Notes: generated from the sequence alone by a model not told the origin. DNA of 4,485 nucleotides from a virus (IMGVR_UViG_2563366972_000007); one strand, 5' to 3'; counted from the first letter of the stretch, positions 1 through 4,485 are shown. Made by a program: numbers and translations.

Positions 1-432
1 GTGGGATCATTAACGGATGTCGCCTCCCGCGTCATGCTGTCGTTTGGTGAGTTTGAATTCAGTATTGATACTGCTGCTTATAACGCCATGAAGCGCACGA
101 TGGAATGGCGATGGGATGAACAACAGCTTATCGGAAAAAACGACCTGCTGCAGTATACCGGCAAGGGGGCCAGAACAATAACCCTTGAAGGTATGGCGCA
201 CGCGGGATTTCGTGACGGTGTGGGAATGGATGCCCTTGATACACTGGTTCAGATGGTGGATGACAATCCGGCCCCGCATCTTCTGGTCTCGAGCACAGGT
301 GATGTGATGGGGTATTTCGTGGCAACCGCTTATTCAGATAACACCACGTCCTTTCTTCCCGGCGGTGCGCCGAAGAACAAAACGTTCACACTGGAGCTGA
401 AATACTATGGCGAAAAACTGGCGGACTACTGA
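1..432 (+). CDS. gpU: P2 gpU-like tail protein; 5' end uncertain because the ORF opens with GTG at the window edge and an in-frame ATG at 34 fits the family N-terminus better
   Basis: Seen: ORF in frame +1 ending with TGA at 430..432. From memory: the translation (MLSFGEFEF..WRWDEQQLIGKNDLLQYTGKGARTITLEGM..GYFVATAYSDNTTSFLPGGAPKNKTFTLEL) aligns along its length with P2 gpU (MLALGMFVF..YRWPSNSRIGKRDAFQFLGVGEENITLAGV..GMYVISRVSETGSIFFADGTPRKIDFTLSL). Not verified by search. Confidence 0.8.
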   Translation: MGSLTDVASRVMLSFGEFEFSIDTAAYNAMKRTMEWRWDEQQLIGKNDLLQYTGKGARTITLEGMAHAGFRDGVGMDALDTLVQMVDDNPAPHLLVSSTGDVMGYFVATAYSDNTTSFLPGGAPKNKTFTLELKYYGEKLADY

Positions 433-625
433 CGGCGATATGCTGGATGACATCTGCCAGAGACACTATGGCAGCGCCGGACTTAACCAGTCACTGGCGG
501 CGGTACTGGAGGCCAATCCCGGACTGGCTGACCTTGGTCCGGTCTATCCGGCAGGTGTGGAAATCGTGTTGCCGGACTGGGTGTATGAACCGGAGGAAAA
601 GGAGGCGTTTCAGTTATGGGACTGA
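407..625 (+). CDS. gpX: P2 gpX-like tail protein X (small LysM-like tail protein)
   Basis: Seen: 72-codon ORF with ATG at 407 overlapping the gpU 3' end by 26 nt; GGAG at 393..396 sits 10 nt upstream. From memory: LDDICQRHYG..AVLEANPGLADLGPVYPAGVEIVLPD matches P2 gpX (LDAICVRYYG..TVLAANPGLAELGAVLPHGTAVELPD). Confidence 0.85.
   Translation: MAKNWRTTDGDMLDDICQRHYGSAGLNQSLAAVLEANPGLADLGPVYPAGVEIVLPDWVYEPEEKEAFQLWD
599..605 (+). promoter_or_regulatory. Shine-Dalgarno sequence (AAGGAGG) for the gpD-like gene
   Basis: Seen: AAGGAGG about 10 nt upstream of ATG 616. Confidence 0.5.
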
Positions 626-1716
626 ATGAGTATCAGCCGGATTTCAGCCTGACAGCAGAGGGTGAGGATATCACGAAGGCCATAAAGCGGGGGCTGGCTG
701 AACTGCGTTATACCGATAATGGTGCGGCCACAAAGCGGGCCGATGAACTGATGATAACGCTGTTCAGTGAGAAGATGGCGTTGCCGCCGAAAGGCGCGGT
801 ATTGACGCTGGGGCTGGGATTTAACGGAAATCTGGTGAATAAAGGCAGTTTTACAGTCTGCCAGGTGGCAAGCGGTGGCCCTCCCCGCCGGATAACCATT
901 TATGCCACCGCAGCCCCCATGAATGCGTCAAAACATGGCGCAGACGTGACCGCACTGAAAACCCGCGCGTTCAGCGATATCACACTGGGCGACCTGGTGA
1001 AAACGATCGCCACTGAAAATAATCTGGTGGCGCGGGTCTCACCGGCGCTGGCAAAAATTCGTATCCCGTGGGTGATGCAGTCATCTGAATCGGATGCGTC
1101 CCTGCTGTCCCGGCTTGCAGGTATGTATGGTGCCACCAGTAAACCGACGAACGGCTACTGGTTATTTCTGGAGTATGGCGCATCACAGAGCGCAGGCGGC
1201 AGGGATGCGCCTGTAATGACCATCACACCGGATATGGTATCAGACTGGGATTACCGGGAGGGGGAGCGGCAGGGAGCATCCGGAGGCGGAAAAGGAACAA
1301 CAAAAAAAGGGAAAGTGGGTGTCCGGTATTTTGATACCCGTGACGGACGCACGCGTGAAGTTAAAGTGGATGTGGAGTCCACAGACAAGCGACATCCATT
1401 CACTCAGCCGGATCAGGATACAGCAAAACACTGCGCAGACTCTAAGGTTAAACGTGTGCAGAAAGCCGGACGCCAGATGACGATAACGTTGCCCTGCAGA
1501 CCAGCACTGCTGAAAGCTGGGGCGGAAATGCGTTTTATCACGCAGGGATTTGGGGTACGGGAAGATCATAACTGGCAGGCTGAGTCGGTGGAGTTTTCAC
1601 TGGCACCGGGGCAGGGATTTACGCTGAATCTGTCGCTGGCCACGGATATTTCCGCGAAAGGACAGGCATCAGGGAAGAAGAAAGCGGATAAAAAGGGCGT
1701 GAATTATTTTGGTTAA
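616..1716 (+). CDS. gpD: P2 gpD-like tail protein (late control gene D family; baseplate hub-type protein of contractile tails)
   Basis: Seen: 366-codon ORF with ATG at 616 overlapping the gpX stop by 10 nt, preceded by AAGGAGG at 599..605. Size and position (immediately after U and X) fit the gpD family. The family call rests on synteny and general resemblance, not an explicit alignment. Confidence 0.75.
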   Translation: MGLNEYQPDFSLTAEGEDITKAIKRGLAELRYTDNGAATKRADELMITLFSEKMALPPKGAVLTLGLGFNGNLVNKGSFTVCQVASGGPPRRITIYATAAPMNASKHGADVTALKTRAFSDITLGDLVKTIATENNLVARVSPALAKIRIPWVMQSSESDASLLSRLAGMYGATSKPTNGYWLFLEYGASQSAGGRDAPVMTITPDMVSDWDYREGERQGASGGGKGTTKKGKVGVRYFDTRDGRTREVKVDVESTDKRHPFTQPDQDTAKHCADSKVKRVQKAGRQMTITLPCRPALLKAGAEMRFITQGFGVREDHNWQAESVEFSLAPGQGFTLNLSLATDISAKGQASGKKKADKKGVNYFG

Positions 1717-1729
1717 TGTTTTCTGGATC

Positions 1730-1733
1730 AGGA
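1730..1733 (+). promoter_or_regulatory. Shine-Dalgarno sequence (AGGA) for the tail fibre gene
   Basis: Seen: AGGA 7 nt upstream of ATG 1741 in the 24-nt gap after the gpD stop. Confidence 0.5.
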
Positions 1734-1740
1734 AATAAAA

Positions 1741-3546
1741 ATGTCTGTATTAATTTCTGGTGTGCTGACTGATGGCGCAGGACTCCCCATGTCCGGATAC
1801 CATATTATTCTGAAAGCCCGGCAGAATACATCTGCAGTGGTCATGAGAACGGTGGCTACAGTGGTGACAGGGCCGACGGGAGAATATGCTTTTGAAGCAC
1901 AGACCGGAAGATATGATGTTTATCTTCGGTCGTGTATTGAAAGAGAATATTGTGTCGGTGATATTTCGGTTTACGACGACTCCAGGTCCGGCACGCTGAA
2001 CGACTTTCTGACTGCCCTTGATGAAGGCGATTTAAAGCCGGATGTAGTGAAACGCTTTGAGGAAATGGTGGCGCAGGCGCAGCAGAGCGCGAAAGCGGCA
2101 GCGGAAAGCGAACGACAGGCCTGGCAACATGTCGCTGATGCGCAACAAATTAAGAGCGACTGCGAGACGCTGGCGGATAACGTACAGCAGAACGCAGAAG
2201 CCGTTGCTGAAGATAAAAAGCACGTGGCACAGCTGTCTTCGCAGGTTGAGGATACCGCCGAAGAGGTCAGGCAGGATGCTGAAGCTGCCAGAAAGGCCGC
2301 ATCCGATGCGGAGCAGGCCAGGGATGAGATTGATACCGCATTATCAGCGACACTCAAAACGGCTAACCACCTGTCAGAAATTGCGGCAGAAGGCGAAGAG
2401 GCGCAACAGGAATCCCGCGATAATCTGGGACTGAAAAGCGCCGCTACAATGGAGCCACAGAGTGATATTTATGACCGGACAGAAGGCCGACTGGCGGTTC
2501 CCGGCATGTTCGGATTCGGGAAAATATTTTCCTATGACGACAGGACAGAGTTTGAAACAGAGGCTGATTTTCTACTGTGGGTAAAAAGGGCAAACCCCGG
2601 ACGCTATGCCGTTTATGCACGTACAAATGTGGTAATACAGGGCGTGCTGCTCAGTGGTACTGTTGACATTATCTGGCCAGAATATCAGCACAATCCCAGT
2701 CCGGTATATATACCTAAAATCATTATTTTCTATGGCATTAACGGCCATGTTTATTACAACCGTTACTGGACTGCCAGTGGTGGTTATCTGGTTGGCTGGG
2801 AGAACCTGAAGGTCAACGAGGCTTCACTCAGGGCACTGATTGAAACCCGCGCGCCACTAAACAGCCCGGCACTGACCGGAACGCCGACAGCGCCAACACC
2901 GCCAGATGATGCAGCAGGCACAGAAATAGCTAATGCGGCGTTTGTCCGCAAACTGCTCGCTGCACTGGTGGATTCATCTCCCGAAGCCCTTGACACGCTG
3001 AACGAACTGGCGGCGGCGCTGGGCAATGACCCGAACTTTGCGACAACCGTCACTAACGCGCTGGCGGGTAAACAACCACTCAGTGATGTGTTAACGGCAC
3101 TCAGCAACCTGACACAACGTGCTGACACGCTTCCGTACTTTAACACAGATGAATACGTCTCCCTTGCGCCCCTGTCAGAAAAGGGACGCTCACTGCTGGC
3201 GCAGGAAACGCCGGAAGCCATGCGAACAGTACTGGAGCTGAAAAGCGCCGCCACAATGGAGCCACAGAGTGATATTTATGACCGGACAGAAGGCCGACTG
3301 GCGATACCGGGGACACTTGGTTTTGGGGAAATTTTTCATATTAATGACAGGATTAGCTTTGACACCAGAGCCGAATTTGATACTTGGATAAGAGGCGCAA
3401 AACCGGGGCGTTATCTGGTTTATGCAAACCCCGGCATAGTGATACCAAAAGTGCTATTCAGTGGAATTCTTGAAATTATCTGGGCTTCAGCTTTAACTAC
3501 TACAACTAACGGCGTAAACAAGATTTATTTTTTTTTACAGTGTTAA
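1741..3546 (+). CDS. stf: Side tail fibre protein, lambda Stf-like N-terminal domain, Ala/Glu/Gln-rich coiled-coil shaft, conserved fibre motif, two receptor-binding-type modules; as encoded it stops prematurely at TAA 3544..3546 inside the second module
   Basis: Seen: 601-codon ORF, AGGA at 1730..1733 sits 7 nt before ATG 1741. From memory: the N-terminus (MSVLISGVLTDGAGLPMSGYHIILKARQNTSAVV..ISVYDDSRSGTLNDFLTAL) aligns with lambda Stf (MAVKISGVLKDGTGKPVQNCTIQLKARRNSTTVV..ITVYEDSQPGTLNDFLCAM). The central block APLNSPALTGTPTAP..EALDTLNELAAALGNDPNFATTVTNALAGKQP matches the conserved Stf/fibre motif APLDSPALTGTPTAP..DALNTLNELAAALGNDPDFATTMTNALAGKQP. Confidence 0.85.
   Translation: MSVLISGVLTDGAGLPMSGYHIILKARQNTSAVVMRTVATVVTGPTGEYAFEAQTGRYDVYLRSCIEREYCVGDISVYDDSRSGTLNDFLTALDEGDLKPDVVKRFEEMVAQAQQSAKAAAESERQAWQHVADAQQIKSDCETLADNVQQNAEAVAEDKKHVAQLSSQVEDTAEEVRQDAEAARKAASDAEQARDEIDTALSATLKTANHLSEIAAEGEEAQQESRDNLGLKSAATMEPQSDIYDRTEGRLAVPGMFGFGKIFSYDDRTEFETEADFLLWVKRANPGRYAVYARTNVVIQGVLLSGTVDIIWPEYQHNPSPVYIPKIIIFYGINGHVYYNRYWTASGGYLVGWENLKVNEASLRALIETRAPLNSPALTGTPTAPTPPDDAAGTEIANAAFVRKLLAALVDSSPEALDTLNELAAALGNDPNFATTVTNALAGKQPLSDVLTALSNLTQRADTLPYFNTDEYVSLAPLSEKGRSLLAQETPEAMRTVLELKSAATMEPQSDIYDRTEGRLAIPGTLGFGEIFHINDRISFDTRAEFDTWIRGAKPGRYLVYANPGIVIPKVLFSGILEIIWASALTTTTNGVNKIYFFLQC
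2431..2496 (+). repeat. Direct repeat copy 1 (66 nt) opening the first receptor-binding-type module; encodes LKSAATMEPQSDIYDRTEGRLA
   Basis: Seen: identical to 3238..3303 at 65 of 66 positions (t at 2445 versus c at 3252); sequence diverges sharply from position 67. Confidence 0.9.
3238..3303 (+). repeat. Direct repeat copy 2 (66 nt) opening the second receptor-binding-type module
   Basis: Seen: 65/66 identity to 2431..2496, same reading frame, 807 nt (269 codons) downstream. Confidence 0.9.
3528..3536 (+). other. T9 homopolymer at the frame-change point of the fibre gene (candidate slippage or phase-variation tract, or indel/sequencing error)
   Basis: Seen: nine consecutive T at 3528..3536. 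It lies inside the 29-nt interval (3518..3546) where frames +1 and +2 are both open. Reading the tract as T8 gives ..NKIYFFYSVNGAVYY.., which matches module 1 (KIIIFYGINGHVYY). Confidence 0.8.
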
Positions 3547-3631
3547 TGGTGCGGTTTATTACGCCCGTGGCACTTCTGGTGCCCCGGCATGGGAACTCTG
3601 GAGACGAACAGATAAGGAATTAATTGATTTT

Positions 3632-3922
3632 TTGTCCGGTACAGTTTATTCCGGCGGGCTGAATGCATCACCGGAGGCTGGCGGTATTGTTCAGGCAGCA
3701 TTTCGTTATCAGGATAAGCCCGGAGGATACACCCTGAGGCGAGGTGATGCTTTAAGTGGTTCACTTCTGAAGCCATATATAATTACAGTCGATGAAAGTG
3801 GCGAACAGACTCTTCATATTAAAGAGGAACATACGTTTCCCGGATATTACTGGAGTCTGACCTCCTATCCGTGGCTGAAAACGAGTGATTATATTCTGGG
3901 AATATTTATAAGGTATCGTTAA
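3632..3922 (+). CDS. Distal (C-terminal) part of the tail fibre, displaced into frame +2; not an independent gene
   Basis: Seen: frame +2 is open from 3518 to TAA 3920..3922 with no in-frame ATG (the ORF-track start at 3632 is TTG). Its translation from 3518 (FIFFYSVNGAVYYARGTSGAPAWELW..) is homologous to the continuation of the first fibre module in frame +1 (IIIFYGINGHVYYNRYWTASGGYLVGWENL..), so it is the natural continuation of the fibre past the T9 tract. Confidence 0.7.
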   Translation: MSGTVYSGGLNASPEAGGIVQAAFRYQDKPGGYTLRRGDALSGSLLKPYIITVDESGEQTLHIKEEHTFPGYYWSLTSYPWLKTSDYILGIFIRYR

Positions 3923-4485
3923 TGAACATTACAGATATAAAAAATCCTGTCAGCCTTGAACACGGGGCGATAAATTGCGAAATATTATTTGACGATATGG
4001 AGGAATATGTTCCCTATACCGCGACACCGACAGACAGCGATAAAACGGGGAAGCAGGTATGGCAGGAGCTACAAAGCGGTAAATGGGGTGAAATCGCCCC
4101 GTTCATCGTCACGCCGGAACTTATTTCGGCAGCGAAGAATGCCAAAAAGCGGGAAATTGAGGTGTGGCGTACAGAGCAGGAAGCGCAGCCGTTCACGTTC
4201 GAATGGAACGGTCATACCTGGAATGGTGGTCCTGACTCGATGGCGCGGCTTTATCCGGCAGTAATAGCATCAAAGTCTGACACAGCGCGAAAATCCATGA
4301 TATGGGGTAATGCGGAAAACCAGCAGGTGAAACTGTCTATGCAGAAACTGGATGAACTGCTTACTGCAATGGTTCAGGCACAGGTCGATCGCAATGATGA
4401 GATTTATCAGCGTCAGCGCGAGATGAAAGAAGCGTTAAATTCACTGGAGGATTTGAAGTCGATTAGGGATTTCAGGCTGGAGTAA
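3922..4485 (+). CDS. Putative tail fibre assembly/chaperone protein; family not recognised
   Basis: Seen: 187-codon ORF whose ATG (3922..3924) overlaps the fibre-frame stop TAA (3920..3922) in a TAATG junction, with AAGG at 3910..3913. The position directly after a fibre gene is where Tfa-type chaperones sit. I do not see the canonical Tfa C-terminal motif, so the function is inferred from context only. Confidence 0.45.
   Translation: MNITDIKNPVSLEHGAINCEILFDDMEEYVPYTATPTDSDKTGKQVWQELQSGKWGEIAPFIVTPELISAAKNAKKREIEVWRTEQEAQPFTFEWNGHTWNGGPDSMARLYPAVIASKSDTARKSMIWGNAENQQVKLSMQKLDELLTAMVQAQVDRNDEIYQRQREMKEALNSLEDLKSIRDFRLE

Follow-up and report, generated by a model that had tools for sequence, protein, structure and literature searches.

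One extra T very probably split the tail-fibre gene of an Escherichia coli Rac-site prophage upstream of its overlapping DUF4376 gene

Analysis of the distal tail region of an Escherichia coli prophage indicated that its tail-fibre gene was very probably split by one extra T in a homopolymeric run, either by a recent frameshift of an ordinary kind or through an error in sequencing, and that the overlap of a TAA stop with the ATG of the downstream DUF4376 gene is the original end of the intact fibre gene. The stretch of DNA analysed (hereafter the window) comprised 4,485 nucleotides, corresponding to positions 1–4485 of KB733035.1, a scaffold in the E. coli draft assembly GCA_000352305.1. It is the distal tail module of a Rac-site prophage and encodes gpU-, gpX- and gpD-like proteins, a tail fibre and a DUF4376 protein that is a probable fibre chaperone (Table 1). 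The gpU-like ORF lost its 5′ end to the scaffold start (143 of 162 codons are present, the product of its relatives being 162 aa long), and what looks like a GTG start at position 1 is an artefact that arises because the scaffold begins there. Gene order around the gpD-like gene was constant across all relatives. Downstream of the window, the scaffold continues with uspF, ompN and the pyruvate:flavodoxin oxidoreductase gene (the ydbK flank). In E. coli DH5alpha, this flank likewise lies beyond a prophage fibre/DUF4376 pair, and in phage Rac-SA53 such a pair is followed by attB and uspF; the region was therefore assigned to a prophage at the Rac site with a contractile-tail-type module.

Table 1. 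Features of the window, with positions counted from its first nucleotide.
Feature	Position	Strand	Evidence
gpU-like tail protein gene	1..432	+	Pfam PF06995, E=2.2e-27
Tail protein X gene	407..625	+	Pfam PF05489, E=2.9e-19
gpD-like gene (baseplate hub / late control D)	616..1716	+	Pfam PF05954, E=4.2e-6, below gathering score
Truncated tail-fibre ORF, 601 aa, frame +1	1741..3546	+	Pfam PF08400 phage_tail_N, E=4.1e-53
Internal fibre repeat, copy 1 (aa 229-341)	2425..2763	+	BLASTP against copy 2
Internal fibre repeat, copy 2 (aa 498-609 of the restored protein)	3232..3568	+	BLASTP against copy 1
T9 homopolymer, site of a one-base insertion relative to T8 in relatives	3528..3536	+	Tract comparison
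Orphaned fibre C-terminus, 128 codons plus stop, frame +2	3537..3922	+	Deletion of one T restores 726 aa
TAAGG, Shine-Dalgarno-like element, 8 nt before the ATG	3909..3913	+	Motif position
TAATG, stop of the frame +2 fibre segment overlapping the DUF4376 start by one base	3920..3924	+	Sequence, ORF listing
DUF4376 gene, 187 aa, probable tail-fibre assembly chaperone	3922..4485	+	Pfam PF14301, E=1.9e-14; phrog_1141, E=8e-83

The fibre starts with a phage_tail_N domain (PF08400, residues 1–133), scored at 179.4 bits against a cut-off of 26.6. Its frame +1 ORF is closed by a premature TAA (3544–3546) three codons past the T9 tract, and in place of a single continuous ORF reaching the receptor-binding tip the window holds 601 aa and an orphan of 128 codons. 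Frame +2 (position mod 3 = 2) has a stop at 3515–3517 and stays open from 3518 onwards. An earlier claim that this frame has no ATG of its own was confirmed by the ORF listing: neither ATG nor GTG occurs between 3518 and 3919, and the only start-type codon is a TTG at 3632, with a poorly spaced Shine-Dalgarno (SD)-like TAAGGA 13 nt upstream. Removal of one T from the run yielded a 726-aa protein that matched the tail fiber family phrog_2636 (E=6e-212), and whose last 260 residues agreed with those of the 726-aa fibres of two relatives (loci L002 and L003), save for three substitutions upstream of the tract. Taken by itself, the orphaned C-terminal segment gave a weak match to the C-terminus of the same family. 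A search of a large protein collection with the 127-aa frame +2 segment returned no match, which was taken to reflect a word-index limit of that search, since known 457- and 726-aa proteins contain the segment. The wild-type reading across the tract, ...IYFFYSVNG..., is recreated by the loss of one U or by a +1 shift on UUU-UUU-UUA, and the junction peptide of the restored full-length fibre is IYFFYSVNGAVYYAR. In closely related sequences, the T8 run results from four successive codons, TAT-TTT-TTT-TAC (Y-F-F-Y).

That frame +2 continues the fibre protein was also apparent from an internal repeat, independently of any relative. The two repeat copies were 57% identical over 113 aa (BLASTP, E=1e-41), the T-tract lies inside copy 2, and the final 12 residues of that copy lie in frame +2. 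There, FYSVNGAVYYAR of frame +2 aligned with FYGINGHVYYNR of copy 1; removal of one T restored KIYFFYSVNGAVYYARG, which could likewise be aligned to copy 1, and the alignment ran uninterrupted across the tract (KIIIFYGINGHVYYNR vs. KIYFFYSVNGAVYYAR, the residues past FF being those of frame +2). Copy 1 has no T run at the equivalent site. The offset between the copies is 269 aa, which equals the length gap between the 726-aa and 457-aa E. coli alleles; the short alleles therefore are without one repeat unit together with a P2-H/Mu-S-like collar stretch. The near-identical repeat starts ('LKSAATMEPQSD') suggest that the unit may have been gained or lost through recombination between them.

Where the window has T9, a run of T8 was found in 12 of 12 related loci from approximately 11 other samples, a small sample that includes 726-, 723- and 457-aa architectures at ~93–99.7% nucleotide identity. 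All of these except one (L009) had a continuous fibre ORF ending in an identical TAATG, and the junction itself was identical in L001–L004, L006, L008, L009 and L013–L018. The exact DUF4376 protein of the window was also present in five other assemblies. Four of these carried an intact 726-aa fibre upstream with the identical TAATG; in the fifth (L006) the fibre was cut by the contig end, yet it reads through the tract. More divergent alleles encoded 457-aa fibres (one repeat unit fewer) or a 723-aa fibre with another N-terminus, and included copies on viral contigs. The T9 run and its 601-aa and 96-aa products were recorded only in the window's own assembly, so that tract lengths comprised one T9 among 13 full loci, and T7 in a remnant (L008). 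The preliminary description had assigned the junction to the frame +2 segment and not to the truncated fibre ORF, which agrees with the 12 T8 relatives, 11 of them with a continuous fibre ending at TAATG.

The closest intact relative, L003, differed from the window over its 4485 nt by 13 substitutions and one indel, the extra T. Downstream of the tract (3537–4485, 949 nt) no differences were observed, and the extra T was also the only indel over 9485 aligned nt. The absence of downstream differences and the single indel in 9.5 kb indicate that the lesion is very recent or is a homopolymer error in one draft assembly. The T8 relatives, the internal repeat running across the tract and the downstream identity with L003 together bear out the earlier proposal that a full-length fibre "recently was" read through this region. 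Among the relatives, frame +2 had 14 variable sites, distributed as 3/6/5 over the three codon positions, with five synonymous-only vs. eight amino-acid-changing codons, which are too few for an assessment of selection.

Two loci with broken fibre genes were of a different nature. In GCA_017597745.1 (L008:4899-5857), a lambdoid fibre/Caudo_TAP pair, together with an intrinsic terminator, precedes an orphan fibre-tip fragment and its DUF4376 gene; the part that resembles the intact fibre starts exactly at the T-run (T7), so that the run coincides with a rearrangement breakpoint in one genome, and TAATG persists although the remnant is dead. On an ENA metagenome scaffold (L009:3918-5291), the fibre is broken by a T6-to-T5 change (equivalent to window positions 3628–3633) and a T3-to-T4 change further upstream, while T8 is kept; both indels probably reflect faulty assembly or decay, and a further 96-aa orphan ORF in the protein collection is explained by them. 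A recurrent switch at the tract, considered on the basis of other 96-aa orphan ORFs, was rejected, L008 being a truncation remnant and L009 carrying different indels.

Exact DNA patterns around the tract were found in neither the genome-contig nor the metagenome-contig collections, a protein-guided scan of genome contigs with the fibre tip gave no match, and no complete E. coli genome contained the tip at megablast level; the fibre tip is therefore rare. The E. coli assembly GCA_001269325.1 contained two prophages (L016 and L017) that share this fibre tip and the T8 run. In one of them a 723-aa fibre gene follows a Mu-type baseplate and a Caudo_TAP gene, whereas in the other the fibre has 457 aa and its gene follows gpD. 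The presence of two tail backgrounds in one assembly indicates that the tip-plus-chaperone module moves between tail backgrounds.

The junction reads T3920 A3921 A3922 T3923 G3924, so that the overlap of the frame +2 stop (TAA 3920–3922) with the putative chaperone start (ATG 3922–3924), as reported in the preliminary description, was confirmed by both the sequence and the ORF listing. The ORF that begins at this ATG has 187 codons and ends at 4485, and a co-directional overlap of −1 nt is, with that of −4 nt, the arrangement used to recognise coupled gene pairs. Whether such a motif exceeds chance was assessed on both strands of the window, which contained 31 T[AG]ATG motifs vs. 21.7 ± 4.7 expected; 20 of the 99 ATGs in the window were preceded by TA or TG. 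TAATG also occurs at 3544–3548, at the premature fibre stop, and at 1714–1718, at the gpD stop, where it is followed by ORFs of 25 and 18 codons, respectively, and the motif alone is thus non-specific. With a minimum of 100 codons required on either side, the motif at 3920 was the only one at which an open frame (134 codons) meets an ORF (187 codons), and a stop-free frame of 134 codons arose in 5 of 20,000 composition-preserving shuffles. The motif itself is not beyond chance; its position is. As an argument for translation of the upstream frame, which is how the overlap had been read earlier, the motif alone is therefore weaker than had been implied, being common by chance. The dead remnant L008 keeps its TAATG, so the overlap records history and not present translation.

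The product of the downstream gene scored 54.4 bits against the DUF4376 profile (PF14301, cut-off 25) over residues 70–175. It had 1785 relatives at E ≤ 0.001, and among the matches listed nearly all were E. coli prophage proteins with no name beyond "DUF4376 domain-containing protein". An AF2 model (pLDDT 91.6) showed beta-hairpins flanked by long helices and returned 32 BFVD matches at E ≤ 0.001, mostly named DUF4376. Searches of the PDB by sequence, profile or fold gave no significant match (best fold E=0.12), and no solved structure represents this large prophage family. A weak, architecture-level likeness to prefoldin beta subunits was observed (probability 0.97, target-normalised TM 0.56, E=0.13). 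Kinship of DUF4376 chaperones with TfaMu has been proposed (PMC7882524); for the window's protein, TfaMu/Caudo_TAP kinship was not reproduced, as there was no PF02413 hit, no PDB sequence or profile match, and no Tfa among the fold matches. In Alteromonas phage V22, and also in Campylobacter CJIE1 prophages, fibres depend for their function on DUF4376 proteins encoded right after the fibre genes, and such proteins of phage A5 have been annotated as fibre chaperones (PMC7289586, PMC10579305, PMC7882524). A requirement for folding or activity of the cognate fibre was shown for these distant members (PMC7289586, PMC7882524), and a literature search found no experimental study of the E. coli prophage subfamily. 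At the family level, the label "putative chaperone" given earlier to the ORF at 3922 is a reasonable one.

In every one of 48 relatives (58–100% protein identity), the DUF4376 gene started where a long fibre frame ends, at a distance of −1 to +14 nt, and in the window it likewise lies immediately downstream and on the same strand, at −1 nt. Fifteen of the 48 had the one-base T[AG]ATG overlap (−1), and the other 33 had spacers of +3 to +14 nt with an SD. In the window, the SD-like TAAGG overlies the final conserved codons of the fibre (F-I-R; F-x-R in the overlapped class), and in relatives of the overlapped class [AG]AGG is likewise found 8 nt before the ATG, inside the conserved last fibre codons. 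Local folding around the start at 3922 revealed no significant occluding RNA structure (z=−0.84), and searches of the 375-nt gap between the premature stop and the junction found no internal promoters or terminators. The gap is G-rich rather than C-rich, so that Rho loading is not favoured. Given its own SD, the lack of an occluding structure and the absence of a terminator, a useful level of de novo initiation at 3922 might occur, and the chaperone might then still be made normally.

Dependence of the chaperone on ribosomes arriving from the fibre nevertheless appears likely in view of published work on E. coli gene pairs. Out of five overlapping pairs tested, three were strongly coupled, one was coupled at ~60% and one (bioBF) was uncoupled (PMC6728339). 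Shifting the upstream stop 38 nt away lowered reinitiation by 80–100%, and long untranslated stretches destabilise E. coli transcripts (PMC6728339, PMC10666635). In E. coli, overlaps are also enriched among genes whose products form complexes, a category that would suit a fibre and its chaperone, and a +10 nt spacing class has been noted in the same organism (PMC10666635). For fibre/DUF4376 pairs themselves, a literature search found no measurement of coupling.

In its intact form, the locus would consist of a single 726-aa fibre ORF, the TAA of which shares one base with the chaperone ATG. A stop/start overlap is the usual arrangement for proteins that are needed together and lets terminating ribosomes restart. 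In the intact gene, the chaperone would thus be made largely by ribosomes that had just completed the fibre. Addition of one T to the T8 run would then end standard decoding at 3544–3546 and strand the last 128 codons in frame +2, leaving the TAATG junction as the unaltered end of the original gene. The 601-aa fibre, cut within the distal repeat domain, would probably be unable to fold or bind. Chaperone output from the T9 copy would probably be lowered as well, judging from the published E. coli data, because no ribosomes would reach the overlap and ~375 nt of mRNA would be left untranslated.

A complete loss of the full-length fibre does not necessarily follow. RNA polymerase slippage on T9 may drop one U from a minority of transcripts or, alternatively, ribosomes may shift +1 on UUU-UUU-UUA; either event could recreate the wild-type fibre, and with it the coupling, at a low level. 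Leaky expression of the full-length fibre through slippage on T9 is plausible in light of earlier reports. Frameshifts that extend a run of 8 to one of 9 have been found to remain partly expressed and were termed "pseudo pseudogenes" (Baranov et al. 2005, Genome Biol 6:R25, PMC1088944). With E. coli RNA polymerase, deletion of a U rescued a T8 reporter at ~10%, a value that increased as the poly(T) run lengthened, and a reporter mutant with a T added to a T-run was rescued as well (PMC6260861); these rates refer to reporter constructs and not to this sequence or to the polymerase of a late operon, which may be antiterminated.

It is also conceivable that the strain itself lacks the extra T: the ninth T could be a homopolymer miscall in a strain that truly has T8 and an intact 726-aa fibre, in which case there would be no lesion to explain. 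This is a possibility to be taken seriously, though we consider it somewhat doubtful. The restriction of T9 and of the 601-aa and 96-aa products to one record, with T8 in the other full loci, is what a miscall would produce, the lack of downstream differences from L003 and the sole indel in 9.5 kb have the look of an isolated error, and the metagenome assembly of L009 shows homopolymer indels elsewhere in the same gene. However, the scaffold contained no further indel in 9485 nt and its A7 run at 1302–1308 was equal to that of the relatives, so the assembly is not generally prone to homopolymer errors, and a real, very recent slip mutation predicts an identical pattern. A separate question is whether the overlap is incidental, with the DUF4376 gene initiated de novo from its own SD and TAATG silent on translation of the upstream frame. 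The TAAGG 8 nt before the ATG, the non-significant local RNA structure, the frequency of T[AG]ATG by chance and its retention in the dead L008 are consistent with this, as are the 33 of 48 relatives that have 3–14 nt spacers and a GAGG/GGGG-type SD and no overlap, and the uncoupled overlap of bioBF (PMC6728339). We nonetheless regard it as rather unlikely, since coupling was seen in four of the five overlapping E. coli pairs examined and was strong in three (PMC6728339), complex-forming pairs are enriched for overlaps, as would fit a fibre and its chaperone (PMC10666635), and in all 48 loci the DUF4376 gene lay within 14 nt of the fibre stop. Even an incidental overlap would leave undisputed that frame +2 is the original C-terminus of the fibre.

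Functional recoding or a contingency switch at the run, by which T-run slippage, +1 frameshifting or replication slippage would set the ratio of short to full fibre or toggle the tip, was judged very unlikely. T8 is kept in all relatives while the flanking codons vary, runs of 8–9 T are slippage-prone for E. coli RNA polymerase, and precedents are available in mxiE (a run of Us), C. rodentium tssM (A11) and T. thermophilus dnaX (A9). A further precedent may be seen in the receptor-binding genes of Campylobacter phages, which carry hypermutable polyG tracts and have DUF4376 chaperones downstream (Sorensen et al. 2021, as cited in PMC10877375). The relatives, however, showed neither a conserved split ORF nor recurrent length polymorphism: 12 of 12 had T8, and none had the split of the window. 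Programmed use, which would call for conservation of both the split and the run length in homologues, is therefore unlikely. Phase variation would call for recurrent changes in tract length, of which there was no sign among the 13 full loci, the other broken copies being broken elsewhere; the remaining 96-aa orphan ORFs stem from unrelated lesions (truncation at the run in L008, other indels in L009). The T8 run is moreover explained by the Y-F-F-Y codons, and repeat copy 1 is without a run at the equivalent place. It is thus most improbable, in our view, that the prophage exploits a T8/T9 run, with DNA switching or RNA slippage toggling the tip or setting the ratio and coupled chaperone output tracking the full-length fibre. 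If this were true, the locus would be an E. coli counterpart of the Campylobacter phage polyG tracts or of tssM1 slippage.

The locus is of value mainly for annotation. On the preferred reading of a single frameshifted gene, the 601-aa and 96-aa ORFs are to be annotated as one frameshifted tail-fibre gene, to be replaced by a 726-aa ORF should the T prove erroneous, and the ORF of 187 aa is to be labelled as the DUF4376 chaperone of that fibre. A stop/start overlap with a frame that has no start of its own can serve as a useful pointer to a broken upstream gene, with position and comparison carrying the inference and not the motif. If T9 is real, the locus would offer a natural test of the extent to which RNA polymerase slippage rescues a T8-to-T9 lesion, and likewise of the degree of dependence of a fibre chaperone on termination–reinitiation, neither of which is a new question.

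The components of the locus have counterparts in known systems. Like the known DUF4376 chaperones (Alteromonas V22 gp27 and A5 gp9, and those of the Campylobacter CJIE1 prophage and Fletchervirus), the downstream protein has a DUF4376 domain, falls within a family of ~180–240 aa proteins and is encoded directly downstream of a receptor-binding fibre gene; it is linked to them by Pfam family and predicted fold only. With the termination–reinitiation pairs of E. coli (Huber et al. 2019, 2023; PMC6728339, PMC10666635) the junction shares co-directional genes, a 1-nt overlap, an SD within the coding region of the first gene and products that would be expected to associate in a complex, whereas in the window the upstream frame is unreachable by standard decoding, its stop lying in effect 375 nt upstream. 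The programmed slippage genes Shigella mxiE, Citrobacter rodentium tssM1 and Thermus dnaX similarly have a long A/T run just before a stop and a protein that continues in another frame, but in these the split and the run length are conserved and needed, while the split in the window is unique and its relatives are intact. The pseudo pseudogenes (PMC1088944) share a run of 8 A/T extended to a slippage-prone 9, a single ORF in other strains and restoration of the ORF by slippage; their run criterion, at least 9 A or T where homologues have a single ORF with a run of 8, corresponds to T9 vs. T8 here. They differ in that the run in the window is of T and not A, that rescue takes the loss of one U or the gain of two, and that T9 may be an assembly error. 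The locus accordingly adds one case to categories already described, namely frameshifted prophage genes, 8-to-9 "pseudo pseudogenes" and overlapping fibre–chaperone pairs.
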